From assembly GCA_038211855.1 (NCBI GenBank), contig JBBQVE010000001.1, forward strand, positions 17,648 through 81,647: a stretch of DNA of 64,000 nt, written 5' to 3'. The notes under the pieces were generated by a model. That model was not told the DNA's origin. It did not search any database and worked only from the letters and a program-made list of their open reading frames with translations. Positions 12,372 through 51,204 of this stretch are shown in pieces (the first letter of the stretch is position 1; each line of letters starts with the position of its first letter). The stretch is from Candidatus Saccharimonadales bacterium. GTDB lineage: Bacteria > Patescibacteriota > Saccharimonadia > Saccharimonadales > SZUA-47. The position numbers were made by a program, and so were the translations under genes.

Positions 12372-12379
12372 TCTGTTAC

Positions 12380-13111: not shown

Positions 13112-13146
13112 ATAAACATAAGTATATATGATTTAAGCGAAACCGT

Positions 13147-34228: not shown

Positions 34229-34364
34229 AAGAATAACAAATTAATGAGTATATTATACAATAAAAGATTACAGATAGCAACAGTTTAGCTGAAGCTCTTA
34301 CTGCGTACTATATACGGTTGTCCCTATCTTTAGCAAGCATACTTTGTGATGTAGAACACACCTT

Positions 34365-35276
34365 CTATAGAGAGATCAAATATTCAGCTACTTTTTCGGT
34401 AATGTAATCGGCAGCTCCACCCATACTTGTAGCTGTTAAACCAGGTTTACTATTAAGCTCGACCAACTTAATGCCGCGCTTGGTATTCGCAAAATCGGCC
34501 GAAATATACCGGGCATCAGCTTTGAAGTAACTATCAATCTCGAGGGCAAGCGCTTTAATATTGGTCGGAATTTCCTCTGGGTATAAGAGGCGCTGACTGG
34601 CACCCTGGGACATATTGGCTTTCAGCTCACCTTTTGCCGGTATACGGAGCTGGCCACCAATAACTGAACCCCCGGCAATCAGAACTCGTATATCATGAGG
34701 TCCCTCTACGAGACCTTCAACATCTGCAAAATCATCAATAAATTCCTGTACCATTAACGGAAACCGGTCAGGCACTTGGTCATATATTTCGCTTTTTTTG
34801 CCGATATAAATCTGGTGACCACCATTGCCTTCAGGCTCTTTCACTACAACCATTTCACCCACTAGCTTGGTGAATGCTTCTTTTACCTCGTCGAAATCAC
34901 GGCAGATAAACGACAGTGGCTGGTATCTTGCGAATAGCTCATAGGTTTTATTTTTGTCGTTGGTTATTTCGTGGATATATTTTGGATTAATAACAAGTAC
35001 GTCTTCATCTGTAAAACCGCCTTTTTCAAGTATGACATCAGCTCTCACATCATTTACTTTTTTGAAATCAGCAACCTCGCTCATTTCATCGACGGTATAG
35101 GCAGTCGAAAATAGACCGTCGCCTTTGTAGGTAGTCTTATCAGTTGCAAAATAGGCTCCAGCACCGAGTCTCTTCAGTGATAAAATTAGTTGTTGATACG
35201 ACTCTTTATAGTACTGGTGATTAAATGGATAGCCCTCTTTGTCGATTGTCCTACAGAATATAACGATGTTTTTCAT
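34365..35276 (-). CDS. ATP-grasp ligase, RimK/GshB-like (paralog 1)
   Basis: 303 aa with GEMVVVKEPEGNGGHQIYI, QEFID, HDIRVLIAGGSV and VELNSKPGL. It is alignable end-to-end with the adjacent gene. Confidence 0.5.
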   Translation of the reverse strand: MKNIVIFCRTIDKEGYPFNHQYYKESYQQLILSLKRLGAGAYFATDKTTYKGDGLFSTAYTVDEMSEVADFKKVNDVRADVILEKGGFTDEDVLVINPKYIHEITNDKNKTYELFARYQPLSFICRDFDEVKEAFTKLVGEMVVVKEPEGNGGHQIYIGKKSEIYDQVPDRFPLMVQEFIDDFADVEGLVEGPHDIRVLIAGGSVIGGQLRIPAKGELKANMSQGASQRLLYPEEIPTNIKALALEIDSYFKADARYISADFANTKRGIKLVELNSKPGLTATSMGGAADYITEKVAEYLISL

Positions 35277-36196
35277 GCGAGGCTTACCAAGTAATCTGCG
35301 AGGCCGCTCATGAAACTGCGGGCCAATTCACCCGTTGATTCTCTGAATAAGCCAGGCTTATTATTAAGTTCCACCATTAACCACCCTTGCTTTCCTTTGG
35401 CAAAATCAATCGCATAGTAGCGCGGTAAAGATTCGAGTTGGCTGTCAACGTCCTGGACTATGTCAAGAACTTCCTGTGGAATAGCAGTTTTGTGAATAAG
35501 CTTTTCACTCCCGCCCAGAGAGACGTTTGCGTGTAATTTTCCTTTTGCGGGTTCACGAATCGTAGCACCGAGTACAGTTCCACCTGCAACTAACACGCGT
35601 AAATCGTGTATACCGGCCGCTAATCCTTCTATGCCGCCGCTCATATCGATAAATTCCTGCACAATAAGTGGAAACGTTTCATTCACAGGGATTTGTATCT
35701 TTTCTTTAAGGTCGATGTAAACCTGGCTTCCGCCGCTCCCATATGGGTTTTTGACTACAACCATTTCGCCTGTCATTGCGTTTATTGCTTGTGATACTTC
35801 CTCGATCGAGTGACACGTTACAGATTTTGGTTGGTAGCGTTCAAACTTTTGATAGGTAAGAACCTTATCGTTCAGAATTGGATGTAGCCGATGGTCAGTA
35901 ACGACTTTGATATCTGTACCCTCAAATCCACCTTTATCAAAAACAACATCGGCATGGATTGGGCCGGTTAGAATAAAGTCATTCACTTGGCTGACCTGAT
36001 CGATTGTCCATGCCTTAGAGAAATTTCCGTTGCCCACATAGGAATCATTGCCAGTTACAAAAAAAGCTTGAGCGCCGGCCCGCTTCATCGCAAGGAGGTA
36101 CTCCTGGTAGGAGTAAAAATAGAGATCGCGCACTGAAAAAGGGTATTTATCGGTTGCCACATTGCGCACAAAAAAAGCAATAGTTTTAGTCTTCAC
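35273..36196 (-). CDS. ATP-grasp ligase, RimK/GshB-like (paralog 2)
   Basis: 307 aa with GEMVVVKNPYGSGGSQVYI, QEFID, HDLRVLVAGGTV and VELNNKPGL. It overlaps paralog 1 by 4 nt. Confidence 0.5.
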   Translation of the reverse strand: MKTKTIAFFVRNVATDKYPFSVRDLYFYSYQEYLLAMKRAGAQAFFVTGNDSYVGNGNFSKAWTIDQVSQVNDFILTGPIHADVVFDKGGFEGTDIKVVTDHRLHPILNDKVLTYQKFERYQPKSVTCHSIEEVSQAINAMTGEMVVVKNPYGSGGSQVYIDLKEKIQIPVNETFPLIVQEFIDMSGGIEGLAAGIHDLRVLVAGGTVLGATIREPAKGKLHANVSLGGSEKLIHKTAIPQEVLDIVQDVDSQLESLPRYYAIDFAKGKQGWLMVELNNKPGLFRESTGELARSFMSGLADYLVSLA

Positions 36197-36245
36197 AATT
36201 AGATTATAATACGGGAAAGCCGTCTAAACTCCTAAAAGGATATAC

Positions 36246-37535
36246 ATGCATCAGAATCATCTAAATTGTTTGTTTGAGTTATGGCAGAAGACGTCTGCAC
36301 CGATGTTTCATACTAGCGAATTTTGGCCAACGTTCACAAACGATGCAGTTCAAGATTTTTTGCGAGCGAAGACCGACGAGCCCCTCTCTAGTTCGCCTAC
36401 AAATAGGGTTGTTTTACTTGAAAACAGACAGAAAATCGAAGCATTTTTGGCAGAAATTAAAACGTTGTCAGAAGAAAAGTACGCCTGTTGGCAGATATAT
36501 ATCGATTTTGAGTCTGCTCGGCTAGCCGAGCTGGATCTGATTTTTGAAGCTACCGATGAAGCCAAAAGCCAGCAGCTGAATGACCAGTTGTTTGGCGTGC
36601 CAGCTGAGTTGCATGAAGCCGATGCCCTCTCTTACCTACTATATAATGTGCAAGCTTTAGAGCCAGTTTCCACGTTGGCAGCAGACGCGCGCCAGCGCTT
36701 AATTGAGGCCTGGTCAGCGGTGGAGCCAAACGTAAACATAAAAGAACTATTTACTGCCTACGATGACTACCGTGTCCAGCTCAAGCCCTACATAGCAGAA
36801 AACTTTGCCTTTCTTGATGAGCTGTTAGCTAGCCATAGTGACATGCTGACGACAGAAGAAACAGTTGAAGCACTTGATGCAGCACTCGAACACATGGAAT
36901 GCAATTCGAGCGGCTGGACGGCAGCAATTCGCGATGGTGCGCCAAACGCTTTTATTGATTACGACAAAAAGAATATCGTTTTGCCGCACGGCCGACCATA
37001 TTCCAAGACACATTTGCGGGGGTTGATCATTCATGAGATTGGTGTGCACGTGACCCGTTCAGTGAATGGCGAGCAGAGCTTAGAAAAACTGGCGGCTGTC
37101 GGTTTGCCGGGCTATGGTCCAGCCGAGGAAGCGATGGGCACGTTATTCGAAAACGCACCGCGCGAGCATTTTGAACTTATGCACAGCCTCGTGGCGTTTG
37201 CAATCATAAATTTTGCATCGCACAGTCACTCCTTCCGTAAGGTCCATGAGCTCACCAAAGCACTGCTCATTTGCCTCGACAAAAAAACCGAGGAACAGCT
37301 TGTACATTACACGCCAGATTACGGCAGAATGGCTTTCTCGCGCTGTATACGCATGATGCGACTCGGTACTGGCGTAATCGTTGACCGTTCGACGACCAAG
37401 TATTGGCGTGGTCTTGGCATGCTGAGAGATTATTTCGAAATCCACGGAACCTCAAACCAAGTGATTGAAGAATTTTTACTTGGCAAATATGACTGCCTGA
37501 AGCCCGCCCAACTCAAACTTATTAAAAAACACTAA
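36246..37535 (+). CDS. Putative zinc metallopeptidase with HExxxH motif (DUF1704 / QEGLA / MATCAP-like)
   Basis: 429 aa. HEIGVH is encoded at 37032-37049 and an EEAMG element lies about 28 aa downstream. It is divergent from the RimK-like pair across a 49-nt spacer. Confidence 0.4.
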   Translation: MHQNHLNCLFELWQKTSAPMFHTSEFWPTFTNDAVQDFLRAKTDEPLSSSPTNRVVLLENRQKIEAFLAEIKTLSEEKYACWQIYIDFESARLAELDLIFEATDEAKSQQLNDQLFGVPAELHEADALSYLLYNVQALEPVSTLAADARQRLIEAWSAVEPNVNIKELFTAYDDYRVQLKPYIAENFAFLDELLASHSDMLTTEETVEALDAALEHMECNSSGWTAAIRDGAPNAFIDYDKKNIVLPHGRPYSKTHLRGLIIHEIGVHVTRSVNGEQSLEKLAAVGLPGYGPAEEAMGTLFENAPREHFELMHSLVAFAIINFASHSHSFRKVHELTKALLICLDKKTEEQLVHYTPDYGRMAFSRCIRMMRLGTGVIVDRSTTKYWRGLGMLRDYFEIHGTSNQVIEEFLLGKYDCLKPAQLKLIKKH

Positions 37536-39454
37536 TCGATTCGGACAGGAACTAATTCGACGCTGACACGGCCGTCTTTGCCGAGGCCGTAATACTCATA
37601 GCTTGGGCTAGAATTGCGCATCATAAAGGCATATAAACGAGCGCGGATTCTACGGAAGACGTGAATACCATGAGTCTTTGGAATAATGATTCGCTCGCGG
37701 CCGACGTACACAATCCAGTCGTCCATAGTATCATCTGGTGTCAAATCGTGGCGCGTGGCAATCTGTGCGATAACCCTCTCGACATTCGGCTCTTCCAAAA
37801 AACCAAAGCGAGCCTTGATGGACAGTAGCGAGGTCTCTTTCTGATGGTTATTCTCAAACGAAGTGATTTCGAGGCGCTTTGGTCCGCGTTCGTATGGACG
37901 TTTCGTCTGCACCACCGTCAAAATAATGAGATGTTGCGGCATATGTTTGAACTTTTTAAAAAATAGTTCCACAAGCGGTGGGACCGGGGAATCCAGGTCG
38001 ACCGGATTATGGACGGTGAGCACCAACAAATTGCTGGAAACTCCGGCAGGTTGGGCTTCTTTGATCTTCAACAAAGACCGCATCGTCATGCTGGAATGGC
38101 CAAGAAAGGTTCGACGAACATGGCCTTTGCCCCACTGCCACGTCCCCATCACAATAAACAGCAGCAAGCCAATTGTTAGTGGCACATAGCCCCCTACGAA
38201 TACTTTGAGCGAGTTGGCCGCTAAAAAACATAAGTCAATGAGCGCAAAACTGCCAAAGAGTAAGAAGGCAGGAAACTTCTTCCACCCCCACTCAAGTCGC
38301 GCGACTTGCAATACAGAAACTGCCGTAATCAGCATAACCGCCGAAACCGCCAATCCATATGCGGCCGCTAAGTTACTACTCGTTTTGAAGGACACAACCA
38401 GAGCCACGCAGCCAATATATAGTGACCAATTAATAAACGGCAGATAAATCTGACCTTCGTGCTCTTGGTGTGTATGATGGATTTTGAGACGAGGCAACAA
38501 TCCCAGTGCGATGCCCTGACTGGCGAGGCTAAAGGCACCCGAAATTAACGCCTGGCTGGCAATGACAGTAGCGAAAGCGGCCAATATGACCATCGGATAC
38601 AAGAGCGTGTGCGGCACCATACTAAAGAAGATATTACTATCGGCAACTGGTTTGTGAGAAAGCAGATAAGCCCCCTGCCCAAGATAACTCAACATCAGAC
38701 AAGGCATCACCACCGTGAACCAACTCAAACGAATCGGCGAGCGTCCAAAGTGTCCCATGTCTGCATAGAGTGCTTCGCCACCCGTTACGACCAGCATAAC
38801 GGAGCCGAGAATTATCAAGAGTTCATAGGGTTTGGTTCGAATAATAAATTGAATGGCTTCGAGTGGATTGAAGGAGCGCAAGATTGACGGCTCAATAATC
38901 AGCTGACGGATACCAAGCGCGGCAATTGTAATAAACCACAGCAAAATAATCGGTCCAAAAACTTTACCTATCACAGCCGTGCCTTTGCGTTGGACCAGGA
39001 AAAGCCCTGTCAAAATAGCGATAGTAATCGGAATAACAAAGCTCGCCAGCGCCGGTGTGGCTATCTTCAAACCTTCAACGGCTGAAAGCACGCTGATGGC
39101 GGGCGTAATAATGCCGTCACCAAAGAGCAATCCGGCACCAAAAGTGAGGACGAGCGCCAAAACTGCTGCAGTCTTCACTTTGTGTCGTCGCAGCAGTGCA
39201 ACGAGAGCAAAAACGCCGCCTTCGCCGTCGTTATCAGCCCGTAAAACAAAGATCACATATTTAATAGCAACAATCAAGATGAGCGCCCACAAAACAACAG
39301 AAATCAGGCCAACGACATTGCTTGGGCTGTACTTGCCACCGCGTCCAAAGAAAATCTCGTTAATGGCATACAGCGGACTGGTACCAATGTCGCCATAGAC
39401 GACACCGAGAGCGCCAAAGGCCAGAACGAGGAGTGGAGTTTTTTTGTTTGACAT
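37532..39454 (-). CDS. kup: KUP/HAK/KT potassium uptake transporter
   Basis: The ATG at 39454 (MSNKKTPLLVLAFGALGVVYGDIGTSPLY...) gives about 641 aa. The upstream 107 codons of the track ORF are Cys-rich and unconserved. Confidence 0.8.
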   Translation of the reverse strand: MSNKKTPLLVLAFGALGVVYGDIGTSPLYAINEIFFGRGGKYSPSNVVGLISVVLWALILIVAIKYVIFVLRADNDGEGGVFALVALLRRHKVKTAAVLALVLTFGAGLLFGDGIITPAISVLSAVEGLKIATPALASFVIPITIAILTGLFLVQRKGTAVIGKVFGPIILLWFITIAALGIRQLIIEPSILRSFNPLEAIQFIIRTKPYELLIILGSVMLVVTGGEALYADMGHFGRSPIRLSWFTVVMPCLMLSYLGQGAYLLSHKPVADSNIFFSMVPHTLLYPMVILAAFATVIASQALISGAFSLASQGIALGLLPRLKIHHTHQEHEGQIYLPFINWSLYIGCVALVVSFKTSSNLAAAYGLAVSAVMLITAVSVLQVARLEWGWKKFPAFLLFGSFALIDLCFLAANSLKVFVGGYVPLTIGLLLFIVMGTWQWGKGHVRRTFLGHSSMTMRSLLKIKEAQPAGVSSNLLVLTVHNPVDLDSPVPPLVELFFKKFKHMPQHLIILTVVQTKRPYERGPKRLEITSFENNHQKETSLLSIKARFGFLEEPNVERVIAQIATRHDLTPDDTMDDWIVYVGRERIIIPKTHGIHVFRRIRARLYAFMMRNSSPSYEYYGLGKDGRVSVELVPVRID

Positions 39455-39586
39455 GTGTTCGTTTCGAGGGTTTCTTAAACACTCATTATAATGTGCTTCA
39501 AGCGTTTTGCCAATCAGTTTAAGGTGATATAGTTGCGAGTTAGCAAAAAACGTTTTATGCTGAAGGTACTTAAAGAGGGTTACACA

Positions 39587-40309
39587 ATGAGTCAGCGTTC
39601 CAAGCTCGGTGTTCTGGTGGCAGAATTTTTCGGTACGGCCTTGCTCGCCAGTGCGGTTTTGGCAGAGGCAAATGCAGCCGGTCTCGTCGTAAACAAAAGT
39701 TGGTTTGTAGCGGCAACAGCAGGACTCACCATCTCGCTCCTGACGCTTACTATCGGTAAGCTGTCTGGTGCACATGTAAATCCAGCAATCACGATCGGTC
39801 TCTGGACTTTGCGCAAAGTTGAAACAGCGACCGCAGTTGCCTATGTGGCTGCCCAGCTGTTGGGTGGCGCAGTGGCGCTAAGCTTGTTTCAATACCTGCA
39901 AAACGATCTTATACAGGGCAAAAATGTTGCCTTTGATTGGCGGATATTCGTTGCCGAAATGCTTGGTACGATGATCTTTGGTTTTGGCGTCGCTGCTGTT
40001 GTTGTTCAGAAACTTAACGGTTACAAAGCTGCGTTCGCAGTCGGTACTTCGTTTATGCTTGGTGCGATCGTCGCGCAGACGGCGAGTAGTGGTTTTTTGA
40101 ACCCAGCTGTGGCACTCGCTAACAATAGTTGGAGCTGGGTGTATGCAGCTGCGCCAGTGCTCGGATCGGTCGTCGGTATGAATGTCTATGACTTTTTCAT
40201 CGCCCCAGAAAGCAGTTTTAAATCTTCTATTAGGCTCACACCCATCAAGCCTGTGTCGCCCGTTGTATCCAAGAAAACCACCAAGAAAACCAGCAAAAAG
40301 AAGCGCTAG
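39587..40309 (+). CDS. MIP-family channel (aquaporin / glycerol facilitator)
   Basis: Two NPA boxes (HVNPAITIG and LNPAVAL) are present, and AGAGGG lies 9 nt upstream of the ATG. There is a Lys-rich C-terminal tail. Confidence 0.8.
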   Translation: MSQRSKLGVLVAEFFGTALLASAVLAEANAAGLVVNKSWFVAATAGLTISLLTLTIGKLSGAHVNPAITIGLWTLRKVETATAVAYVAAQLLGGAVALSLFQYLQNDLIQGKNVAFDWRIFVAEMLGTMIFGFGVAAVVVQKLNGYKAAFAVGTSFMLGAIVAQTASSGFLNPAVALANNSWSWVYAAAPVLGSVVGMNVYDFFIAPESSFKSSIRLTPIKPVSPVVSKKTTKKTSKKKR

Positions 40310-43300
40310 TTATATCTTATCGTCGAGTAAGTCTTGCTCAAATTTTTCGATGCCGTGTATATCTTGTGAGTAGGCCGTAGTGTCAGGAAAATCTGTAGCT
40401 ATGATTTTCTTCCAGGCTTTTTGAATCAAAGTAGACATACGTGCAATTTCTTCGGAAGTAGGAGTATAGCTTTGGATAAGGTGTTTGATATCGGGTGATT
40501 CAACATAGACCATTTGACATTCGATAGCTGACCTGCCGGCCAATCGCGGTGTTTGGCTTGCTAGTAGTGCATAAAAAATAAGCTGGCTACGGTGACGCCA
40601 TGCTTTGACCGCTTTACTTTGATCATTCGTAAACAGACTAGTCAGTGGTTTGCCCGTTTTGTAGTCAGCAATGATGATTTTATTCGGATCTTGGCCATCA
40701 ATGCGATCTAGTTTACCGAGTAGTCGCACACCGCCTTCGAGCGTGCAGATGAGTTTTTGCTCACTATTACTTTTTGGTTGGAGCGTATAGCCATATGTCT
40801 CAAACAACGTACCAAGTGTTCTTTGACCGAGTGGCAAATAACGCTCGAATTCGTCAGAGAGGACCTGTTGCTCAACTAAGGCATCTTCGTAGGCTTGGAA
40901 GACCTCATCCAAATCAAATGCATCTTTGTTGACAAGCTTTTGAGCATATTCCAACGCAGCGTGTATGGCCGTACCGTAGGATTGACTCATGGTTTTTGCT
41001 TCTGGTAATCGCAGCAGATCGCGTTCTTTAAAATAGCCTGGACCGCCGACCGTCACATCCAAAAAATTTAAAAGTGCCGTCGGGCTGAGTGTGAATTCTT
41101 CGAGTACTGGTTGCAATAAAAAACTTTCTTTAGCATGACCAAGTTGTGGCCATGATAACGCTGATTCTAAGACTTTTTTGGGGTCGCCTGCATTTTGTAG
41201 CTCAATGCGTTTGGGTGGCAGAACTGCTCGAACAAATGGTGCGCTCAGCAATTCTTCGCCGAGTACGTTACTGTAGAAACTACTCACAAATAAAGAATGT
41301 TTGGCGCGCGTTGCGGCAACATAAAATAGTCGCGCGTAGTCATCGGCATCTTCGCCATAGGCTTGCAAAGGCAGGTTAACCGGCGACTTGCGGCCGCCGC
41401 GGTTTGGCTTCCAGTATTCTTCATTTGCATCAACTACGAAAACGGTGTCAAATTCAAGACCCTTGGCTTTATGCACGGTCAAAAGTTGCACGGCATCATT
41501 GCCACTTACGTACACGGAAGAGTCAGTGATGAGCCGCTTGTTTTCACGGTTCACATGTACGAACTTCATAAAGTCCGTTAAAGTCACTTCATTTTTAATA
41601 GAAAATTCGCGCGCCAAATCGGTCAGTAATCGGAGGGCCGAAAGCGCTTCTAAATAAGCTGAAGTTGTCGCCTTGTTTTCAAAGAAATGATTGCGTATTG
41701 GACTTGTAAACTTCTCATACGGTCGCAAGCCGACAATGTATTCGATCATCAAACTGAGCGGATTCGTAGCAGCGGCGCGCGCAAGCTCCATGAAGTCTTT
41801 CATAAGTTCTACAATTTGTGTATCCTCTGAGGCTAACAGGCTTTTAACCCAGTGCGGACGGTATCGATTGTCGATTGCCAGTTGCCACAATGCTTCTGTC
41901 GATACGCCCCACAAAGGCTCGCGTAGTAGCTCACTCAAAATGACGTTAGATGCAGCCTCGTTACCATTGTTAAGTTCAATGAGCAGATCACAGACCAGCA
42001 GTACTTGCACGACGACAGGATGGTTTAGCGCGTTATTTTGACGTTCATAACGAATCGCTACATCCAACGCTTGCAGTTGTTCAGCGAGGCGCAAGAGACT
42101 TTCGTGACCGCGCGCCAACACAGCAATCGTTCCGCTTTTTTTATGTGCAACAGCAATGGTGTTGGCAATAGCACTCAGTTGATGCTCGCGCGTGGGGTAC
42201 GAAAGATGCTGTATTGTTCCTTGCTCTGTTGGTTCTTTTTTGGCGATGAGGTTCTTGATGATGTCGGCTTCACGTTTGGTGAGCCGGTCATTTATTTGCT
42301 CGGCCAACAGATGTGCGGTGTTCAAAATCGCCTGACTAGATCGATAGTTTTCGACGAGTACAATCGCCTTTTTTATCTTGTAAAACGAGCGGAAATTGAG
42401 CATGTTGCTAAGTTCGGCGCCATTAAACTTAAAGATCGATTGATCGTCATCACCGACCGCCATCAGGTTCGGTTGACCATTGCTGGTGTGATGGTCTGCC
42501 ACAAGGTGGGCGAGGCGCAGCTGTGCCGGATTCGTGTCTTGAAATTCATCGATCAACACGTGCGTAAACTGTTCCTGCACATCACTGCGCAACTCAGTAT
42601 TTTGTTCCAACTGACTAATGACTTCAACAATCATATCCGAATAATCGTAGTAGCCACGAGTGTGCAATGTGTCGCGGTAGAGTTTGTAGACGTGTGACAG
42701 CTCGAGCCACCACTGGTTTATCGATCGTTCAGCATGCATGCCCTTGACGCCATCAACAGATTTTACAAAGCGTTGCTTCCATTTGCTCGTGTTCGTGGCT
42801 TTGCCTGTATCAGCATCTAATGCAATTGCTTGTTTCAAACTTTCTACTAAAACACTGCGTAAAGACAAAAGTGGTGTAATAGCTGTATCAATTGACTGCT
42901 CCGGCAATGCTTCAATATTTGTTAATAATCCATATAATTTTTTGTAACTCAGTGTTTCGCTCAAAATGTCGACGACATCAGCTTCAATAAGATCAATATA
43001 GTCCAAATTTACAGAAATGATTGTCTCGAGTTTTTCGGGCGTTAATCCTGCCTCTTTAGTGAGTTTGAGAGCGTTTTGAACCGCTGTGGTGCCGGTCAGC
43101 TCACCTGCAAACCGTTTGGCTAAGGGATTATCGAGTGGAAGCGACATCAGGATTTCTTGAATCACTTCCAGCTGTACCGTATCAGGCACTGTTCCAAGTC
43201 GAGCCCCATTCCAAAAATAATCTGGATAGTCATTCATGATGTCAGCCGCAAAACTATGAAAAGTCCGCACGGCGACTTTATAGGCGGCCGGGCCAATAAA

Positions 43301-43537
43301 ATCAAATAGGCGGTCGCGCATATTGGTGGCCGCCTTGTTGGTAAACGTCAAACAGAGGATATTTTGGGGGCTCGTATCGGTGTTTTGCAGAATATATGCG
43401 ACGCGAACGCTTAAAAGCTGTGTTTTACCTGTTCCTGGCCCGGCGATAACCAATAAAGGGCCCTCGATATGTTCGACGGCTGCGCGTTGTTCGTTATTGA
43501 GTTCTTTTAGTGCTTTTTCATAAGGAGTCATTCTCAT
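40310..43537 (-). CDS. UvrD/PcrA-type SF1 helicase fused to a C-terminal PD-(D/E)xK (RecB-family) nuclease (AddA-like)
   Basis: 1075 aa. The Walker A motif is AGPGTGKTQ and helicase motifs run throughout. The C-terminal motif RIDGQDPNKIIIADYKTGK matches the RecB/Cas4 nuclease signature. Confidence 0.7.
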   Translation of the reverse strand: MRMTPYEKALKELNNEQRAAVEHIEGPLLVIAGPGTGKTQLLSVRVAYILQNTDTSPQNILCLTFTNKAATNMRDRLFDFIGPAAYKVAVRTFHSFAADIMNDYPDYFWNGARLGTVPDTVQLEVIQEILMSLPLDNPLAKRFAGELTGTTAVQNALKLTKEAGLTPEKLETIISVNLDYIDLIEADVVDILSETLSYKKLYGLLTNIEALPEQSIDTAITPLLSLRSVLVESLKQAIALDADTGKATNTSKWKQRFVKSVDGVKGMHAERSINQWWLELSHVYKLYRDTLHTRGYYDYSDMIVEVISQLEQNTELRSDVQEQFTHVLIDEFQDTNPAQLRLAHLVADHHTSNGQPNLMAVGDDDQSIFKFNGAELSNMLNFRSFYKIKKAIVLVENYRSSQAILNTAHLLAEQINDRLTKREADIIKNLIAKKEPTEQGTIQHLSYPTREHQLSAIANTIAVAHKKSGTIAVLARGHESLLRLAEQLQALDVAIRYERQNNALNHPVVVQVLLVCDLLIELNNGNEAASNVILSELLREPLWGVSTEALWQLAIDNRYRPHWVKSLLASEDTQIVELMKDFMELARAAATNPLSLMIEYIVGLRPYEKFTSPIRNHFFENKATTSAYLEALSALRLLTDLAREFSIKNEVTLTDFMKFVHVNRENKRLITDSSVYVSGNDAVQLLTVHKAKGLEFDTVFVVDANEEYWKPNRGGRKSPVNLPLQAYGEDADDYARLFYVAATRAKHSLFVSSFYSNVLGEELLSAPFVRAVLPPKRIELQNAGDPKKVLESALSWPQLGHAKESFLLQPVLEEFTLSPTALLNFLDVTVGGPGYFKERDLLRLPEAKTMSQSYGTAIHAALEYAQKLVNKDAFDLDEVFQAYEDALVEQQVLSDEFERYLPLGQRTLGTLFETYGYTLQPKSNSEQKLICTLEGGVRLLGKLDRIDGQDPNKIIIADYKTGKPLTSLFTNDQSKAVKAWRHRSQLIFYALLASQTPRLAGRSAIECQMVYVESPDIKHLIQSYTPTSEEIARMSTLIQKAWKKIIATDFPDTTAYSQDIHGIEKFEQDLLDDKI

Positions 43538-43566
43538 CTATTGTAGCGCGCTGACACTATTAGAAG

Positions 43567-46047
43567 CTACCCCGTCGATGGCTCAGTGTAGAGTCTTTCG
43601 ATAGTAACATTCCACGGATCATCGTCAACGATTGCATCGACCAACTCATTGAATAAGTCGTAGTTTCTCAGTTTTGAGGCGCAAAAAAGCTGGATGACAT
43701 CGAGTCGGTTACCGGTAGGTAACTTTGCCTGAAGCGTCCTAGCAGCCTCAAGGGCGGTTTCAAAATCACCCGCCAAGAGCTTATGCATTATTGGCTGCAA
43801 TTTTTTACGAGGCACCTGCATTTTGTCAGCAAGTTTCTCGGTGATATGGCGACGAACTTTCGGATGTGTCGCACCATCCTCGTAAAGGTTATACAGACCA
43901 TCAAAATCACCATTCAACAAGTAGATATCAGCAAGGAACGCACGTGATTTTCTCTGATTTTTATAGTCATCAAACTTGCCTAATTCGTAAGCATTAATAA
44001 GTTGCTCCATTACAGTAGAGTCGTTCGAATTATATATGTCATATTGCTTCATGAACCTGCTAGCTATACCCCATTCGCCGGCACTAACAGCCCACTGCAT
44101 ACCGATTTCGCACATTATTTCACATACGTAGGGGACATCGCTCATCCAAGTGCCCCTGGAACGTCGCCACATGCCGGCGAATGGGACCAAAGGGTCATCT
44201 TCTGCAACGGCTGCCAGCATCATCATGACCGGTTCGTATGATTTTAAGATCTCCATAAATTCATCTGCGTATGGGCCTTCAAATTTTTCGAGCTCCGTTA
44301 AATCCGGATGTTTAATTTTGAGCTCAACTAAGCGATCATCACCTTCAAAAAAACTTCTAATCATGCGGTTTTTTATGACGTTTTCAGTATCAAAATCCGG
44401 ATGACGATGGGCGACCTTAAGGGCATCTGCAAAATCAATGTAACGCATATCGTCGATGAGCATTTCGGTCAAAAGTTCATGGCCAATTTTGCTATTCGGA
44501 TAGTGGTCTATGAACTGACGGACGACTCGTTCACTTAAACCGCCAATTCTCGCGGCAGGTAGCTGGGCGATGAACTTAAGGGTATGCGTCTCTAATGAAG
44601 CACCATTCGTTAACTGTTCGAGTGCTGCCATCATCATAGAATGTTTGAGCGGACTCCCACTGCGACCCACCATATCAAAAAACGCACACCACAGATCGTT
44701 CTTATCTTCCCCGGCATCATGTAGCAAATTCAGCTCATTGTATGCGGTTTCTATGTCAGCATCACTCGGTTCTTCATTGCAGTTTATGCGGTAGCTCAGT
44801 TCTTCTAAAGCACTGTGTACTAATGTTTCCGGCTCTAAAGTGTCGGCAAGCAGATCGGTCGGAATCAAACTTGTAATATGGCGGAGGATATTCGATGTCA
44901 CGGTCATTTTATCCTCAAATGTTGGCTCATACTGCACGACGTTTTCCAGTCCACCGAAGTTGCCGTAATTGATTTCATAAGCCACAACTTCGCCTTTCAT
45001 CGTGATCGATAGGTCGCTGCCATAGAGAGCCTGATGGCCCAGTCCACGGTGAAATTCTGTAACTACTCTTTCTGCATCTTCTCTGTCGACGCCGATTTGT
45101 TCGAGCTTTTTCATAATCCAATCAAAGGAATGTTCGGTAGCACCGAGTGCAAAGTTTATCGGACCACCTTCAGCTGCGACGCGGGCGTATGAACCAAAGT
45201 AGTTGCCACCGCCACCGATACCACGGAGGTTCCAGTGCTTCATTCGGAGATTGTCGTCGATAATTGGAATCGGCTCTTTCAGCGCTTCGACAATGACGCC
45301 GTTGCCATCATCAATTAAAGTATTGGCATGGGCTACTGCCGCATTTAGCTCGTCACCAGCGAAGAACTTCACTCCCATTCCGCGGGCACCCCGCTTCGGT
45401 TTAACGACGATACCTCCAGGGCTATTTTGCTTCGTGAATAGTGCCAATTTAATTGCTGTTGGTCTTCTATCCGATTCAAATCCTATACTCGGAATAAAGG
45501 GGACTTGCCCCGCTAGTAGCTTTTTTGCCTTCGCTTTGTCACCCATTTCGGTGTATGTCTCGGCATCCATGGCGACCGGGATGTTATGCGATTCAAGTAT
45601 CGCTTTGCTCTCCTCATTAAAAGGATCCGACAACACGAAGTCGATCCGTACTGGCGCATCAAAGTGACCGATGCAAATTTTGCCAGCGGCATTCAACGTG
45701 GCGCCATGATTCGCCCACAATTTTGCATGGCGTGCTTCAAGGTCGTGGGCCGCCCAAGGAAACAGAATGACCACATTCGGCGCGTCTTCGCCTGCTTCAC
45801 GTAAGCGGGCAGCGGTAATTCCGAGAAATTCCTGTCCCGAAAAGCTACTATGGGCTATACCGATTGTCGGTTGCGATGGATCGATGTCGGTTGAATTCGT
45901 ATGATCGGTGGTTGTGAGAGGTATGAGTGGAGCAAAATCTTCGACAACCCCATACGCTGTACGCAGTTCCCGGATGGCTGGACGGAGGTAGTCCATATCC
46001 AACTTGTTAATTACTTCCGCATGAAAGGAGTCTGCTTGCAAGGACAT
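43567..46047 (-). CDS. Large ATP-grasp-domain fusion protein (N-terminal ATP-grasp, ~370-aa alpha-helical C-terminal domain)
   Basis: 826 aa. The ATP-grasp P-loop GGIVVKPKRGARGMGVKFF is followed by GVIVEALKEP and then a helical domain with no recognised motif. Confidence 0.4.
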   Translation of the reverse strand: MSLQADSFHAEVINKLDMDYLRPAIRELRTAYGVVEDFAPLIPLTTTDHTNSTDIDPSQPTIGIAHSSFSGQEFLGITAARLREAGEDAPNVVILFPWAAHDLEARHAKLWANHGATLNAAGKICIGHFDAPVRIDFVLSDPFNEESKAILESHNIPVAMDAETYTEMGDKAKAKKLLAGQVPFIPSIGFESDRRPTAIKLALFTKQNSPGGIVVKPKRGARGMGVKFFAGDELNAAVAHANTLIDDGNGVIVEALKEPIPIIDDNLRMKHWNLRGIGGGGNYFGSYARVAAEGGPINFALGATEHSFDWIMKKLEQIGVDREDAERVVTEFHRGLGHQALYGSDLSITMKGEVVAYEINYGNFGGLENVVQYEPTFEDKMTVTSNILRHITSLIPTDLLADTLEPETLVHSALEELSYRINCNEEPSDADIETAYNELNLLHDAGEDKNDLWCAFFDMVGRSGSPLKHSMMMAALEQLTNGASLETHTLKFIAQLPAARIGGLSERVVRQFIDHYPNSKIGHELLTEMLIDDMRYIDFADALKVAHRHPDFDTENVIKNRMIRSFFEGDDRLVELKIKHPDLTELEKFEGPYADEFMEILKSYEPVMMMLAAVAEDDPLVPFAGMWRRSRGTWMSDVPYVCEIMCEIGMQWAVSAGEWGIASRFMKQYDIYNSNDSTVMEQLINAYELGKFDDYKNQRKSRAFLADIYLLNGDFDGLYNLYEDGATHPKVRRHITEKLADKMQVPRKKLQPIMHKLLAGDFETALEAARTLQAKLPTGNRLDVIQLFCASKLRNYDLFNELVDAIVDDDPWNVTIERLYTEPSTG

Positions 46048-46105
46048 ATTCGAATTACTATAACACTTACGGCAAGAATATCCAATAAAGGTATACTAGT
46101 GAAAG

Positions 46106-47086
46106 ATGATATCGTTTGAACTTCCCCCAGAACTGATTGCTCAGACTCCTGCAGTGCCCCGCGACAGCGCCCGTTTGCTGGTGTATGACCGCATAACAGG
46201 CTCCATAACAGATAGTGTTTTTAGCGAAATGAACGAGTTTTTGCCAGCCGCTACGACGCTGGTCGTTAATAATAGTAAGGTTGAAGACTGCCGCTGGTTG
46301 TTTGATGACGGCAAAACCGAGTTATTCGTCCTCGAAAAGCTTGATACGCACACCATACGTGCCCTCGTTCGCCCAGGTAAAAAGTTCAAAATTGGCACTT
46401 CCACAGCTATTACAGACTGGCTCAGCGTTGAAAACGTGGCAACTGATGACGCTGGCATCCGCACCTTGCGCCTCAATGTGCCGCATGATGACCAACGCCT
46501 AAGGGCCTACGAACACGTCCCCTTGCCGCCATATATCGCTCAAAACGATACTTTAAAGGCCGAGTACCAGACGGTGTATGCCAAACCGCTCGGCAGCAAG
46601 GCTGCACCGACCGCTGGATTGCACTTTACAGATGAACTAATGGCCAAAATCGCTGAAACCCACGATATTGCTGAAGTTACACTTCACGTCGGGCTGGGAA
46701 CCTTTGCAAAATTGACAGACCAGCAGCTCAAAAGCGGTCATCTGCACAAGGAAGCCTATGAAATCGACCAAAATACAGCCAAGTTACTAAACAAAGCATC
46801 GCACCGTACTGCGGTCGGTACAACATCGGTCAGAACCCTCGAATCTGCCTGGAAACCAACCGGCTACACGGCCGAAAAGTCTCAAACGTCGATTCTAATC
46901 CAGCCCGGCTATGAATTTAAGGCGGTCAACGCTCTGATTACGAATTTTCACTTGCCAACCACCAGCCTATTACTTCTCGTCGAAGCCTTTATTGGTTGCG
47001 AATCAGAACTCCAAAGAATCTACGACCACGCCATCCAAGAAAAATACCGTTTTTACTCATTTGGCGACGCTATGCTGATTGTTTGA
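46106..47086 (+). CDS. queA: S-adenosylmethionine:tRNA ribosyltransferase-isomerase
   Basis: 326 aa with FELPPELIAQTP, LLVYDR and typical QueA architecture. Confidence 0.8.
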   Translation: MISFELPPELIAQTPAVPRDSARLLVYDRITGSITDSVFSEMNEFLPAATTLVVNNSKVEDCRWLFDDGKTELFVLEKLDTHTIRALVRPGKKFKIGTSTAITDWLSVENVATDDAGIRTLRLNVPHDDQRLRAYEHVPLPPYIAQNDTLKAEYQTVYAKPLGSKAAPTAGLHFTDELMAKIAETHDIAEVTLHVGLGTFAKLTDQQLKSGHLHKEAYEIDQNTAKLLNKASHRTAVGTTSVRTLESAWKPTGYTAEKSQTSILIQPGYEFKAVNALITNFHLPTTSLLLLVEAFIGCESELQRIYDHAIQEKYRFYSFGDAMLIV

Positions 47087-48014
47087 TAATGACAAGTTTC
47101 ATTGGGCGATTTTTTGGACGACGGGCTCGCGGTGAAAATTCTCTTTCTTTGGCAGTAAAGTATTCGGCCAAATCGATGATGTCGGCTTCGTCGTAAGGTG
47201 GTTCGCCAGTTGCTTGCATATGATTCACGAAGTCTGCCGCTCGGCGCAATCCAGCGCTGAATTTACTTATTTTGCGCCCATGGAACCTGGCATGACCGAG
47301 GGCTACGGCACCGTAGCTGGCCTTACTTGTTTCTATCTTGCCGCTCGCTAGTTCATATGATTCGCCGACGTAATTACGCTTTAACAGTGGTCGTTCGTCT
47401 GTATTGATGGTTCTTCTAATAAGCACATTGGCTGCCAACATGTAGGCTTCAATTACATCCTCGGCGCATTTCACGCGCGGTACTTCTTCGCCCAGCAAGT
47501 GATGCCGAAGGAGCGTGGCAACGCTGTACATGTCGACGAGGTTAGAATCACTATCTGCAAGGCGATCATTGAACTTTTTATAAGTGATGCCATGAGCTTG
47601 GACCCGCGATGGCTCATAAGAAATCGCCCCTATGCCATTCGCATTAATACCAAACGTAAGTGTCATCGCAGCAATACCTATAGGAGTAAATCGATCAAGA
47701 CTCAGCATTTCGGTCGCCTGGTCAGGAAAAAGCGGATTGCAGACCCGTCGTTTACCTTGCGTGGAATATTCGCTACGCACTTTCTCAATGGCGGGATCAA
47801 CATAAATAGTTCCGCGCAAAAGGCCGACGTTTGCTAAATGGACGCGCGCTAAAAATTCACCGTCACCCAAATCATGCGCGGCAATTTGATCGTCAACTTC
47901 AAACAGTGGTCGGTCATCAACGGCAATACCGTCGTGGTAAAAAGGGCGTTTAATAAGTTCTTGGTGTGAGGGGTACCAGAGGGGCGATGCTAAGTCAGCG
48001 CCGGAGAGTGACAT
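47070..48014 (-). CDS. Minimal RNB-domain protein (RNase II/R catalytic domain only)
   Basis: 314 aa. The motif-I-like segment IAVDDRPLFEVDDQIAAHDLGDGEFLARVHLANV resembles FTID..D.DDA....DG..L.VHIADV. The motif-IV-like segment HARFHGRKISKFSAGLRRAADFVNH resembles HFGL...Y.HFTSPIRRY.DL.VHR. Cold-shock and S1 domains are absent. Confidence 0.45.
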   Translation of the reverse strand: MSLSGADLASPLWYPSHQELIKRPFYHDGIAVDDRPLFEVDDQIAAHDLGDGEFLARVHLANVGLLRGTIYVDPAIEKVRSEYSTQGKRRVCNPLFPDQATEMLSLDRFTPIGIAAMTLTFGINANGIGAISYEPSRVQAHGITYKKFNDRLADSDSNLVDMYSVATLLRHHLLGEEVPRVKCAEDVIEAYMLAANVLIRRTINTDERPLLKRNYVGESYELASGKIETSKASYGAVALGHARFHGRKISKFSAGLRRAADFVNHMQATGEPPYDEADIIDLAEYFTAKEREFSPRARRPKNRPMKLVIIKQSA

Positions 48015-48081
48015 GCAACATCTCTTTCATACTCGTATCAAAACACAAGCAGGATTCGGGGGGAAGAAAGTGTGACTTTTA

Positions 48082-48906
48082 TCACAATTTCTGGAGTAGT
48101 AGTTCGATTTGGTCGAGCTTGCAGGCGACGCCAGCGTCTTTGTTGGCAAGGGTACGTACTGCAGTGGGATCGGTCATGAAGTAGGCGAACATCTCGGCTT
48201 TATCTTCTTCGATAGCCGATGTAGCATAGCCATCAACAAAGCCGTATGAGGGGTGTTGTTTGTGTGCAAAATCAGGGTTCGAATACATTGCTGAACCACC
48301 GTTGCCGTACTTGACGCTCGGATGGTTACAGCTGGACCAGATGTCATCTTTTGGAGCAAAACTGCCAAGTAAATCATATTCGATAAGATGGTTGAACTCG
48401 TGGTGAAAGGTGCGGCGCATATAGTCGCCGTTTTCGCTTTGTAGATTTGCGTCAGAGACATCAAAATATAGTGCATGTTCAAAGCGTGGTTCTGGCATTC
48501 CAGATCGATATTGGCCATCAACTGAGAGGTTCGCGACCAAATAGATCGATTTCAGTCCACTTGTTTTGATTGCATGCGTCGAATATCTTGAGAATTCGTT
48601 TTGTAATTCACTGGCGGCTTGGAGAACATTGGCGTCGGCTGCTTTGTATTCGCCCCATGAAACTGCTGGAACAGCGCTTTTTGGTGACGCGGACAAAGTA
48701 ATACTGCGCTCCTTAAAAAAAGCCTGAGCTGTGGTAAAACTGGCTGCATTAACGGACACGGAGTGATCAACGGGTTGAGCTGCAGCTACTGGTGAAGCAG
48801 GCGCATTCAAAGCGACAGCGTGCAACTGTGCAATTGAGTAAAAACCAACAAAAACGACACCCATAAGGGTACCGAGAGCCAGTAAAAGCGATAACCACCG
48901 TTTCAT
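48082..48906 (-). CDS. Secreted zinc metallopeptidase (HExxH)
   Basis: A signal peptide (MKRWLSLLLALGTLMGVVFVGF) and HHEFNH are present. Confidence 0.45.
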   Translation of the reverse strand: MKRWLSLLLALGTLMGVVFVGFYSIAQLHAVALNAPASPVAAAQPVDHSVSVNAASFTTAQAFFKERSITLSASPKSAVPAVSWGEYKAADANVLQAASELQNEFSRYSTHAIKTSGLKSIYLVANLSVDGQYRSGMPEPRFEHALYFDVSDANLQSENGDYMRRTFHHEFNHLIEYDLLGSFAPKDDIWSSCNHPSVKYGNGGSAMYSNPDFAHKQHPSYGFVDGYATSAIEEDKAEMFAYFMTDPTAVRTLANKDAGVACKLDQIELLLQKL

Positions 48907-48954
48907 AAGAGTTATTATAGCATAAACGTTATAAAATTACAAGAGTGTATGCTG

Positions 48955-51204
48955 CTATTTCTTGGGGAGTGAGAGGGCCTTCTGGAGTGAGGCAGTAATC
49001 ACTGGCAGATCAAGCATATCGCCGTCCCAAGCCAGATAGTTCTGCTCCCACATTGGCTCAAACTTATTCTTGAACTGCTCTAGGCCTTGCATGGAAAACA
49101 CTGGTTTAAGGGCCTTTTTGCTGAGGTTAAGGAGCAGTTTTGTCGTTTGTTCTTTGCCAACGTGGGCCAGTGGCACAAAGCCGAGGTCAAAATGGGTAAA
49201 CTTCCCTTCCTGCTTCAATTGCAGAATCGTTTCACTCAGCAGCAGTGCCATGGCGCCTTCAGCATCGGGGAGGAAACGCATCAGGTCGATGGTAGTCTGG
49301 GTGATTGGTCCAAACGACGGTAGTTGGTTGGCAAATGCTACAATCTCGCCAGCTTGATTTTTGAGGGCATGAATTATGCAGTCCTTCAAAAAATCAGCGT
49401 CAAAGTACCCAAGTGCAAAGGTCCGCTCGCTATGGCCGTCACGTTGCAACCAGTCATCAGAAATCGTTTTTAGACGAGTGAGGATTTCATCGTTTTGCGG
49501 CGCGGGCAACGTCACGTACTCTAGCCCCTGTTTTTTGGCTTTGTTGCGAGCCCAGCGCCACCATTTGTCTTTCACCGTCTGCGAGGTGAAGGTGGCCATA
49601 TCAACAACTGCACTGGAACCGATCGCCATCGTCTTATAGCCGGCTTTTTGGTAGTTACCCAGGTTCTTTTCTTGAATCATGAGCCAACAGGCGTGACTTC
49701 CCTTTTGACGACAAAAATCACGGAAGGCGACGATATCTTCGCGTCGACGCGACGGATGGGAGATTGGTTCAGCCAATGCAAATGTCATGGCGTTGGCCTG
49801 TTTAAAGGCGATTGCCGAACGTTCACCTGGACCGACCCAAAAGGCTTTATCCTTTGGCCAGAGCTTGAGGCTGTCTTCAGATGACGTACCATATCGCTCC
49901 AGCAGATGCTTGACGAGTACACGACTCCCTTCATCATCATCACTGTGGTGTGGCAGTAAGCCGGGCAGGAACAGCCCCAAAAAGAGCCACGAATACAAAA
50001 AGATACCCGCGGCGTTGAGCGCCTGTTCAAACAAACGAGCTTTGAGCGAATCGTCAGCATCGGGACTGATTTCGAGGAGAAGCGTTCGTTTGACGATGCG
50101 CGATGTTGAGAGCGTGCTGCGCTTCCAAGCGTTCAAGTTAAAAGCATGGAATCCAACAGAGAGAATCACAACGGCGCCGGCCGTAATTGCCAATACGAGT
50201 ACGGTTGATTTGAGACGGTTCACAAACCGTTCTGGACTATTGTGGCGCGTAAACAGATTCTCAGAAAATATGAGCACAAGCGCCAGCAGGCCGTAGCCAA
50301 TCACATCAGCAGGTCGAGGAGTAATGGCGGCGAATTTGATGATTTCCATTGCCGCTAATGCCAAAACGATACGGCGTGCCAGCGCCGATCCGCGCGCCAT
50401 CGAGCGGCTCAGCAACAGCAAGACGAGCCCAACCACGACGCTATGCTGCACCAGCCAGGCAGTATCATTGACGAACAGGAGTCCGCCAGCCCGGCGGCCA
50501 ACGTGGTACAGGTGCGCCGCCGTTAGTAGCGATACGAGGCCGTTCGCAGCTACAAAATAGGCCAAGACTTTTCGGATACGGCTGGCATTTTTTTCGGCAA
50601 CTTCTAGCCTCCACGAGGGGCGATAGAACAGATAGTAGACCCAATAGAGCTGCGTAAGCGTATAGAGCATCTCTACGGTGAGCAGGATGGTTGGCGCATT
50701 GCTGTGACCGACGTACAGACCAACGATGCACAAGAACTGAACGAGCGGCATCCATAATAATTTCCGCTGTCTATAGGCGAGGTATGTAGAACCGCCCAAA
50801 AATAGTCCGCCAAGCAGGGCGAGCGCGCTGGCATGAATCGACGATGAGAAGGTGTTAACGGGCGAGCAGACACCCATCGCCACTTGGCACCGAATCGGCA
50901 GCAGGACTGGTACTGCCATCAAAAGCAGACCGCCATAAAAGATATCTACAGCGTGACGGCCAAACTTTTCACGCACATCATGACGCGCTATATATATACT
51001 GACACCTAAGGTAACAATTCCTAGCAGCGCAAATAGTCGAAACAGACCGGCGTCTCTCATATTCGAGGCTTGATAAGCTTCGCTCAGGTTTGGACCGCGT
51101 AGCAACAGATGATTCGCGTAAGCCGAAAGCAACCACACCGAGCTGCTGAGAAAGTAGATAACAGAGAGAATCCTTAAGCTGGTTTTTTTGTTTATGCTTT
51201 CCAC
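48955..51204 (-). CDS. MprF-like aminoacyl-phosphatidylglycerol synthase (polytopic N-terminus + DUF2156 / LPG_synthase_C domain)
   Basis: 749 aa. More than 10 TM helices are followed by a cytoplasmic C-terminal domain with GL.QFK.KFEP.W...YLA-type motifs. Confidence 0.5.
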   Translation of the reverse strand: MESINKKTSLRILSVIYFLSSSVWLLSAYANHLLLRGPNLSEAYQASNMRDAGLFRLFALLGIVTLGVSIYIARHDVREKFGRHAVDIFYGGLLLMAVPVLLPIRCQVAMGVCSPVNTFSSSIHASALALLGGLFLGGSTYLAYRQRKLLWMPLVQFLCIVGLYVGHSNAPTILLTVEMLYTLTQLYWVYYLFYRPSWRLEVAEKNASRIRKVLAYFVAANGLVSLLTAAHLYHVGRRAGGLLFVNDTAWLVQHSVVVGLVLLLLSRSMARGSALARRIVLALAAMEIIKFAAITPRPADVIGYGLLALVLIFSENLFTRHNSPERFVNRLKSTVLVLAITAGAVVILSVGFHAFNLNAWKRSTLSTSRIVKRTLLLEISPDADDSLKARLFEQALNAAGIFLYSWLFLGLFLPGLLPHHSDDDEGSRVLVKHLLERYGTSSEDSLKLWPKDKAFWVGPGERSAIAFKQANAMTFALAEPISHPSRRREDIVAFRDFCRQKGSHACWLMIQEKNLGNYQKAGYKTMAIGSSAVVDMATFTSQTVKDKWWRWARNKAKKQGLEYVTLPAPQNDEILTRLKTISDDWLQRDGHSERTFALGYFDADFLKDCIIHALKNQAGEIVAFANQLPSFGPITQTTIDLMRFLPDAEGAMALLLSETILQLKQEGKFTHFDLGFVPLAHVGKEQTTKLLLNLSKKALKPVFSMQGLEQFKNKFEPMWEQNYLAWDGDMLDLPVITASLQKALSLPKK

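Follow-up and report, generated by a model that had tools for sequence, protein, structure and literature searches.

A lineage-specific ATP-grasp protein with a TPR-like tail and a core helicase-nuclease: probably unrelated neighbours in a Saccharimonadales genome

Two adjacent genes were examined in a 64,000 nt stretch of a Candidatus Saccharimonadales genome (contig JBBQVE010000001.1; the whole stretch is called the window below). One specifies a 1075-aa helicase-nuclease (nt 40310–43537, minus strand) and the other an 826-aa ATP-grasp ligase with a C-terminal domain resembling tetratricopeptide repeats (TPR) (nt 43567–46047, minus strand). On balance, the two are best explained as functionally unrelated neighbours, a standard helicase-nuclease core gene and an accessory ATP-grasp ligase gained in this lineage, which is probably directed at proteins or peptides. 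The original prediction had described both open reading frames (ORFs) with exact coordinates and lengths and on one strand, and had implied that the combination was significant. It placed the 826-aa gene immediately downstream of the helicase gene, which is true only in plus-strand coordinates; the two genes do share a strand, but in the order of transcription the 826-aa gene lies upstream (5'), separated from the helicase gene by a spacer of 29 nt (43538–43566).

The pairing is not conserved at three helicase loci and eight loci of the ATP-grasp family. The helicase of locus L008 is 84% identical to that of the window and those of L009 and L010 are 65% identical. In the window, the 826-aa gene is divergent from queA (nt 46106–47086, plus strand; Pfam Queuosine_synth, 5e-98, and above the NCBIfam QueA cut-off), and the helicase gene is convergent with a MIP/aquaporin gene (nt 39533–40309, plus strand; Pfam MIP, 7e-24). 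Locus L008 has the same order, running from mprF to queA and then, divergently, through helicase, MIP, MATCAP-like, two RimK and ATP-grasp_4 genes, with only 157 nt between queA and the helicase gene and no ATP-grasp gene between them. Loci L009 and L010 keep the order queA, helicase, MIP, and carry a 169-aa ORF without a Pfam match at the place where the ATP-grasp gene would be. The MIP gene is thus a conserved neighbour, lying downstream of the helicase gene in all three. A tBLASTn search with the 826-aa protein found no trace of that protein in any of these loci. Conversely, no helicase gene occurs near eight loci of the ATP-grasp family (P0003, P0005, P0008, P0009, P0010, P0013, P0020 and L011), seven of which have neighbouring genes; P0014 lies on a 3-kb contig with no other gene. 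The combination therefore appears to carry no biological meaning and to be a lineage-specific juxtaposition. This is essentially the outcome that had been named in advance as speaking against the original idea: the pairing is unconserved and the C-terminal domain, described below, resolves to a generic TPR-like repeat.

Alignment of L008 with the window (BLASTn) delimits the difference. Positions 8862–9858 of L008 match nt 47087–46090 of the window, positions 9985–14044 match nt 43547–39500, and the 126 nt between them (9859–9984, queA-helicase intergenic) are the counterpart of nt 43548–46089. This lineage-specific block of 2,542 nt contains exactly the ATP-grasp-TPR gene. The more parsimonious explanation is a gain in this lineage, by which a 2.5-kb block holding this one gene entered the divergent queA-helicase promoter region; a single gain is favoured over repeated loss because three relatives, one of them more distant, lack the gene. 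Signs of a mobile element were sought at the insertion, and neither flanking repeats nor mobility genes were found. A 14-nt direct repeat (ATAACCAATAAAGG / ATATCCAATAAAGG; nt 43446–43459 and 46078–46091) has a copy at the edge of the inserted block that faces queA and another about 90 nt inside the helicase gene, and is probably due to chance.

The 1075-aa protein is, judged from sequence comparisons, the product of a core gene of Candidatus Saccharibacteria and a member of an abundant, automatically annotated family rather than an oddity. It was matched by 7,979 protein clusters at E ≤ 1e-20; the best 120 of these are 50–84% identical to it and 1,032–1,112 aa long, and those of the 120 that bear a name are annotated "ATP-dependent DNA helicase", from Candidatus Saccharibacteria, Saccharimonadales or Patescibacteria. 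On this ground the window itself is assigned to a Saccharibacterium. Pfam matches (UvrD-helicase, 9e-64; UvrD_C, 4e-30; PDDEXK_1, 9e-22) place the helicase core at residues 13–753 (nt 41279–43501, minus strand) and a PD-(D/E)XK nuclease domain of the RecB family at residues 836–1052 (nt 40382–41032, minus strand). The core carries the motifs AGPGTGKT (Walker A), DEFQD, GDDDQSIF, YRS, HKAKGLEF and VAATRA, and the nuclease domain GxAxH (855–859), D944/D947, DYKTG (958–962) and QLxxY (985–989); the peptide IIADYKTGK, cited originally as evidence for the nuclease, was located at residues 954–962. In an alignment of 14 homologues, AGPGTGKT, DEFQD, GDDDQSIF, HKAKGLEF, VAxxRA and all four nuclease motifs are invariant. 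The nuclease domain has no iron-sulphur cluster of the AddB/Cas4 type, as its sequence holds only two cysteines. The true start of the protein is probably Met3 (nt 43531), and the alignment with the L008 orthologue begins at residue 3.

The protein had been described as AddA-like. This holds for the fusion of a helicase to a PD-(D/E)XK nuclease, as confirmed by Pfam, but in both NCBIfam and PDB comparisons the motor resembles PcrA/UvrD more than AddA. The best NCBIfam scores, among them also that of Rep, were 260.7 bits for PcrA (cut-off 911.2) and 211.6 bits for UvrD (cut-off 1144), while AddA gave 132.9 bits against 707.65 (TIGR02785) and 138.9 bits against 860.75 (TIGR02784), and RecB gave 127.2 bits against 696 (TIGR00609). 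The closest solved structures by PDB sequence search were PcrA (8e-49), UvrD (3e-46), AdnB (7e-20), AddA (9e-15) and RecB (4e-12). Like AddA, AdnB and RecB, the protein joins in a single chain a superfamily 1A (SF1A) UvrD-like motor and, C-terminal to it, a nuclease of the RecB family. It differs from AddA of AddAB in falling far below the equivalog cut-offs and in having no addB gene in the window or beside the L008, L009 and L010 orthologues, and from RecB of RecBCD in scoring below the TIGR00609 cut-off with no RecC- or RecD-like ORFs nearby. PcrA/UvrD is the best-scoring family for the motor, but here too the equivalog cut-offs are not reached, and the protein carries the additional nuclease domain. 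The hidden Markov models (HMMs) of GajB in PADLOC also match the helicase (1.9e-75). A Gabija or other defence system was considered on this basis and rejected, as GajB matches are generic to the UvrD superfamily, no GajA is present and the helicase gene belongs to the syntenic core.

As originally stated, there is no adjacent AddB/RecC-like partner: the ORFs scanned across the window include no ORF of AddB/RecC size, no RecC/RecD-like ORF and no second PD-(D/E)XK protein, and no AddB, AdnA, RecC or RecD gene lies beside the orthologues in L008, L009 and L010. The protein fits none of AddA, RecB, PcrA/UvrD or GajB, yet we infer that it works like a motor-nuclease of the AddA/AdnB type. As a single-chain SF1A UvrD/PcrA-like helicase-nuclease, it would unwind DNA and cut the displaced strand, a mechanism proposed because the motifs are invariant. 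It would thereby serve end resection or repair, much as AddA or AdnB does, and its probable role is in DNA-end processing or repair, with no AddB/RecC-type partner gene alongside. A literature search on helicase-nucleases of Saccharibacteria returned nothing relevant. Saccharibacteria universally retain this single-chain UvrD-like helicase/RecB-nuclease with no partner gene alongside, and it may represent a minimal DNA-end-processing enzyme.

The 826-aa protein can be assigned soundly, by its predicted three-domain fold and by conserved residues, to the ATP-grasp superfamily, and belongs to no curated family within it. The catalytic module spans residues ~55–395 (nt 44863–45885, minus strand), as delimited by an alignment of its relatives, their Pfam matches, AlphaFold and Foldseek. 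Among 58 relatives, the Pfam families matched were ATPgrasp_ST (45/58), ATPgrasp_YheCD (41/58), ATP-grasp_3 (21/58), RimK (15/58) and TTL (10/58). Residues N91, K171, K216, G223, R275, R289, D345, E358 and G365 are invariant in these 58 sequences and N360 nearly so, and all of the family-invariant catalytic residues are present in the 826-aa protein, including the canonical ATP-grasp lysine (VVKP), the Gly-rich loop and the E-x-N magnesium ligands. The peptide GGIVVKPKRGARGMGVKFF, on which the ATP-grasp assignment had first been based, lies at residues 211–229. An AlphaFold2 model of the full-length protein, built with the family alignment, has a predicted local distance difference test score (pLDDT) of 78.6 and a predicted template modelling score (pTM) of 0.74, with residues ~70–400 mostly above 90. 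A Foldseek search of the PDB with this model returned about 50 solved ATP-grasp enzymes at E-values of 5e-10 to 1e-7, among them VanA/Ddl, LysX/ArgX, DcsG, GshB, synapsin and MdnB, and the best target-normalised TM-score (0.70) was to LysX/ArgX with the carrier protein LysW bound (5k2m). The family profile matched GshAB (1.7e-11), cyanophycin synthetase (4e-9) and RimK/LysX (~3e-8) in the PDB. The assignment is sound because the model, the Foldseek matches and the family-profile matches all agree with the conserved residues, and the early reading of the N-terminal half as ATP-grasp is upheld by way of homologues and structure prediction. With the 826-aa sequence as the query, a direct PDB search gave only noise, and the best NCBIfam match, to the ATP-grasp enzyme DcsG, scored 24.9 bits where the cut-off is 360 (9.5e-6, residues 170–255), with none to the RimK family (TIGR00768 / NF007764).

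The remainder of the protein (residues 396–826; nt 43570–44862, minus strand) is predicted by AlphaFold, Foldseek and the family profile to be an all-helical, TPR-like (alpha-solenoid) domain. It had been recognised from the start as all-helical, but its length of ~430 aa in the model exceeds the ~370 aa first estimated. In the full-length and the C-terminal-only AlphaFold models alike, the region consists of helices throughout, about 25 in number, and includes a low-confidence linker (~570–637); the C-terminal-only model has a pLDDT of 66, below that of the same region in the full-length model. In a Foldseek search with this pLDDT-66 model, only solenoids of the TPR and pentatricopeptide repeat (PPR) type were retrieved (Pins/LGN, Ctr9, Tom70/71, Naa15, OGT, KLC and APC subunits), and these weakly (E ≥ 7e-3, TM-score ≤ 0.24). 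The domain was also said to be without a recognisable motif. For the protein itself this stands, since its Pfam TPR matches are below threshold and confined to residues 703–734 (TPR_14, 14.1 bits against 23.5; TPR_7, 12.1 against 27.9), but at the level of the family a generic TPR-like repeat can be resolved: positions ~450–750 of the family profile match designed PPR/TPR proteins at 5e-7 to 1e-3, and in the larger relatives P0081, P0062 and P0066 the ATP-grasp module is immediately followed by canonical TPR repeats. A tail of 380–470 aa is present in about 37 relatives. Across the family, the tails group by sequence into clusters between which little or no relationship can be detected. The tail of the 826-aa protein shows no significant sequence or profile homology to other tails of the family (hhalign probability ≤ 5%) and is 25% identical to that of P0003, compared with 36% over the whole protein. 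The domain is best described as a fast-diverging TPR-like array, and not as a Mur-ligase, glutathionylspermidine or other enzymatic domain. The early exclusion of cyanophycin synthetase is correct because a helical domain takes the place of the Mur-ligase domain; there is no Mur_ligase match, and the family profile matches just the ATP-grasp part of CphA.

Relatives of the protein are few. An HMMER search of 1.84 billion representative proteins returned 112 at E ≤ 1e-3, of which one, P0003 (814 aa, 36% identical), is a full-length relative and another, P0004, is a fragment with 60% identity over its best-matching stretch; the others match residues ~50–400 only. The protein is an orphan at 90% clustering (one member, one contig). 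Word-indexed homologue searches, with either the single sequence or a 58-sequence profile, recovered only the protein itself and one spurious TPR protein. Neither a pattern scan of GTDB genomes with the single sequence nor one of JGI metagenomes with an alignment of the protein, P0003 and P0004 found relatives, while a scan with the alignment of the g1 subfamily led to one locus, L011, in a metagenome-assembled genome of Saccharimonadia. The ATP-grasp-TPR family is, from the sequences collected, sparse, fast-diverging and uncharacterised, and is known so far from Saccharimonadia and unclassified metagenome contigs. In IMG its members carry the label "glutathione synthase/RimK-type ligase-like ATP-grasp enzyme", and a literature search on ATP-grasp enzymes of Saccharibacteria and on ATP-grasp-TPR fusions found no paper describing such enzymes.

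Several members have features of their own. The closest relative of the 826-aa protein, 57% identical over residues 182–390, is encoded on an 884-nt metagenome contig (L017, nt 98–790); its ORF ends about 20 codons past the ATP-grasp module. Either this version has no tail, or the early stop is an artefact of assembly or of a frameshift. P0061 (1395 aa) has an N-terminal transglutaminase-like core fused to the ATP-grasp module, and in P0101 and P0111 the module lies within giant proteins of 5,947 and 6,281 aa. The sole recurrent context for the family is the order der (EngA GTPase), ATP-grasp-TPR gene, pth (peptidyl-tRNA hydrolase), on one strand and with short gaps, in L005 (6605–11207) and L013 (3441–8075), two members of one subfamily that belong to different 50%-identity clusters. 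In L015 (1017–6063), just 5' of an ATP-grasp-TPR gene, secA is separated from a pentapeptide-repeat gene by genes for an IS1595 transposase, for a Replic_Relax protein and for a pair of bAvd and reverse transcriptase, the last resembling a cassette of a diversity-generating retroelement; in L016, secA and the pentapeptide-repeat gene are adjacent.

The function of the ATP-grasp protein was considered by comparison with known systems. ATP-grasp enzymes activate a carboxylate as an acyl-phosphate and then join it to an amine, and a TPR array carried by an enzyme usually serves to bind a peptide or a protein. Within the superfamily, the 826-aa protein would be an accessory carboxylate-amine ligase close to ATPgrasp_ST, YheCD and RimK, in which K216, the Gly-rich loop, D345, E358 and N360 bind ATP-Mg and the same two chemical steps are followed. 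Its TPR-like tail of ~430 aa would recruit a protein or peptide substrate, to the C-terminus or a side chain of which one or more amino acids would be added, as by RimK, LysX/ArgX and TTL. By analogy with these enzymes, the most likely role is that of an amino-acid ligase of the RimK/LysX/TTL type whose protein or peptide substrate is held by the tail. RimK (ribosomal protein S6–L-glutamate ligase) and the LysW-modifying LysX/ArgX share with it the ATP-grasp fold, the ATP/Mg residues and, as proposed, the ligation of an amino acid to a protein carboxylate. They differ in being ~280–300 aa long without a TPR-like tail, and the 826-aa protein has neither a RimK-family NCBIfam match nor an identified S6- or LysW-like partner. 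Tubulin-tyrosine ligase and the TTLL enzymes are likewise ATP-grasp ligases that tail proteins with amino acids and use additional domains for substrate recognition; they are eukaryotic and have no direct sequence match to the 826-aa protein, so that the resemblance is one of logic and not of membership. ATPgrasp_ST and ATPgrasp_YheCD, the Pfam families most often matched by the relatives, are to our knowledge biochemically uncharacterised. The 826-aa protein reaches neither model, and its architecture of ~800 aa with a helical tail of ~400 aa falls outside the domain definitions. ATPgrasp_ST (PF14397) and ATPgrasp_YheCD (PF14398) are amidoligases predicted in the computational survey of Iyer et al. 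2009, which PMC4431377 cites as its reference 16.

A broader proposal, which we regard as tentative and on present evidence rather doubtful, is that the ATP-grasp-TPR proteins form an undescribed family of protein-tailing or protein-modifying ligases whose diverging tails select lineage-specific targets. A translation factor or a ribosomal protein might be such a target, as might a protein at the cell surface or one that interacts with the host. If this were true, the family would constitute a new system of post-translational modification in episymbiotic bacteria of ultra-small size, the reduced genomes of which are otherwise poor in such functions. Neither this family nor the lone helicase-nuclease resolves a long-standing question.

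Several points weigh against the explanation of the two genes as a core helicase-nuclease and an acquired, protein- or peptide-directed ligase. The 826-aa protein itself has no Pfam ATP-grasp match and passes no curated Pfam or NCBIfam ATP-grasp threshold, its assignment being drawn from homologues and from a predicted structure. The TPR assignment is weak at the level of its own sequence, given the poor Foldseek scores and the lack of significant tail similarity. The choice of gain over loss depends on the loci of three relatives, and the gene has a G+C content of 0.472 and a codon usage typical of the window, with no compositional sign of recent transfer; the gain is thus not recent, or the donor was of similar composition. 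No substrate, partner or conserved neighbour was found at the loci examined, and a protein or peptide substrate is what we infer from the domain architecture and its likeness to known ligases. Lastly, the two genes may be co-transcribed here, since they are 29 nt apart and no terminator-like site was found between them.

A credible rival, to which we give a minor but real share of the probability, is that the enzyme is a small-molecule or cell-envelope ligase, adding an amino acid to the peptidoglycan stem or cross-bridge or making a dipeptide or poly-amino-acid, with the tail serving localisation or oligomerisation. The lowest Foldseek E-values were to VanA/Ddl and DcsG, and the top Pfam family among the relatives is the "sugar-transfer associated" ATP-grasp. 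Some family loci also have cell-wall genes nearby: L011 adjoins a D-Ala-D-Ala carboxypeptidase gene, in L015 the family gene is followed on its own strand by a Mur ligase and MurL, and L001 has FemAB-like and DegT genes within 8 kb. However, Ddl structures dominate the ATP-grasp entries of the PDB, so their rank is unspecific, and the best TM-score is to a protein modifier, LysX/ArgX. The wall-related neighbours are inconsistent, other contexts being der with pth, yajQ and major facilitator superfamily transporter genes, and the general binding preference of enzyme-borne TPR arrays for peptides and proteins also speaks for the protein-directed ligase.

Far less probable is a functional operon, that is, a new repair or defence module in which the ATP-grasp enzyme would modify or regulate the helicase-nuclease, DNA ends or a repair factor. 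The shared strand, the short spacer without a terminator-like site and the GajB matches of the helicase core are compatible with it. Against it, the closest relatives have the helicase but no ATP-grasp gene beside it, no helicase occurs at eight loci of the ATP-grasp family, the GajB matches have the generic character already noted, with no GajA and a helicase gene of the syntenic core, and the ATP-grasp protein has no PADLOC match. The helicase gene also seems to keep a start signal of its own. Within the spacer (nt 43538–43566, minus strand), a TACAAT hexamer (43540–43545), read from the sequence, is followed after 8 nt by the ATG at 43531, and the same TACAAT-N8-ATG precedes the helicase gene in L008 (9985–10003). 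The hexamer is a possible -10 element belonging to the helicase gene, which would give a leaderless mRNA, and because the arrangement is shared with L008 the gene appears to retain its own leaderless-type start signal. For the ATP-grasp gene, a consensus scan found a promoter-like TGGATA-16-TATAGT with an upstream TG (nt 46057–46084, minus strand), which ends 10 nt before the start codon; promoter-like sites in the region are no more numerous than expected from shuffled sequence, and the site is a candidate only. The operon explanation is largely refuted by the lack of co-occurrence. In passing, -10-like hexamers lie only 8–10 nt 5' of both starts and no obvious Shine-Dalgarno sequence was noticed, which hints at leaderless or near-leaderless mRNAs.

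Two further explanations seem most improbable. A macrocyclase of the graspetide type, a class of ribosomally synthesised and post-translationally modified peptide (RiPP) enzymes, would cross-link a small precursor peptide; the macrocyclase AMdnB (7m4s) is among the Foldseek matches (rank 25), and an uncharacterised 136-aa ORF lies just upstream of the closest homologue, but dozens of further ATP-grasp enzymes match at least as well as MdnB, the window has queA upstream of the gene and no small precursor ORF next to it, and no small neighbour is conserved across the family loci. That the gene is a decaying or catalytically dead remnant without an enzymatic role would suit its orphan status at 90% clustering and the lack of a Pfam match of its own, but hardly an intact ORF of 2.48 kb with all family-invariant catalytic residues, a confident model and host-like codon usage.

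The 826-aa gene is, as was suspected, the fourth ATP-grasp gene of this region, the other three lying at nt 32942–36196. These are a gene for a 428-aa ATP-grasp_4 protein and two RimK-like genes (303 and 307 aa; nt 34365–36196), which stand beside a divergent gene for a putative metallocarboxypeptidase of the MATCAP/QEGLA-like (DUF1704) type (nt 32942–37535 in all). The cluster looks like a ligase-plus-peptidase pair; the three ATP-grasp genes and the MATCAP-like gene are kept in L008 and absent in L009. Next to this cluster, the Kup ORF as called (747 aa; nt 37532–39775) overlaps the MIP gene by 243 nt. The real kup gene is probably nt 37532–39454, because Kup homology starts from about residue 110 and Met108 (nt 39454) begins MSNKKTPLLVLAFGALGVVYGDIG. 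In L008, kup is absent between the MIP and MATCAP-like genes, making this a second lineage-specific difference of a single gene. The only RNA-family matches in the window are tRNA-Glu(CTC) (nt 1875–1951) and tRNA-Leu(CAA) (nt 11459–11545). On the far side of the locus, beside queA (nt 47070–51204), lie genes for a 749-aa protein with the C-terminal domain of an MprF-like lysyl-phosphatidylglycerol synthase, a 274-aa LIC13305-family lipoprotein that is a putative HExxH zinc metallopeptidase, and a 314-aa ORF without a family match; the MprF-like and LIC13305-family genes are kept in L008.

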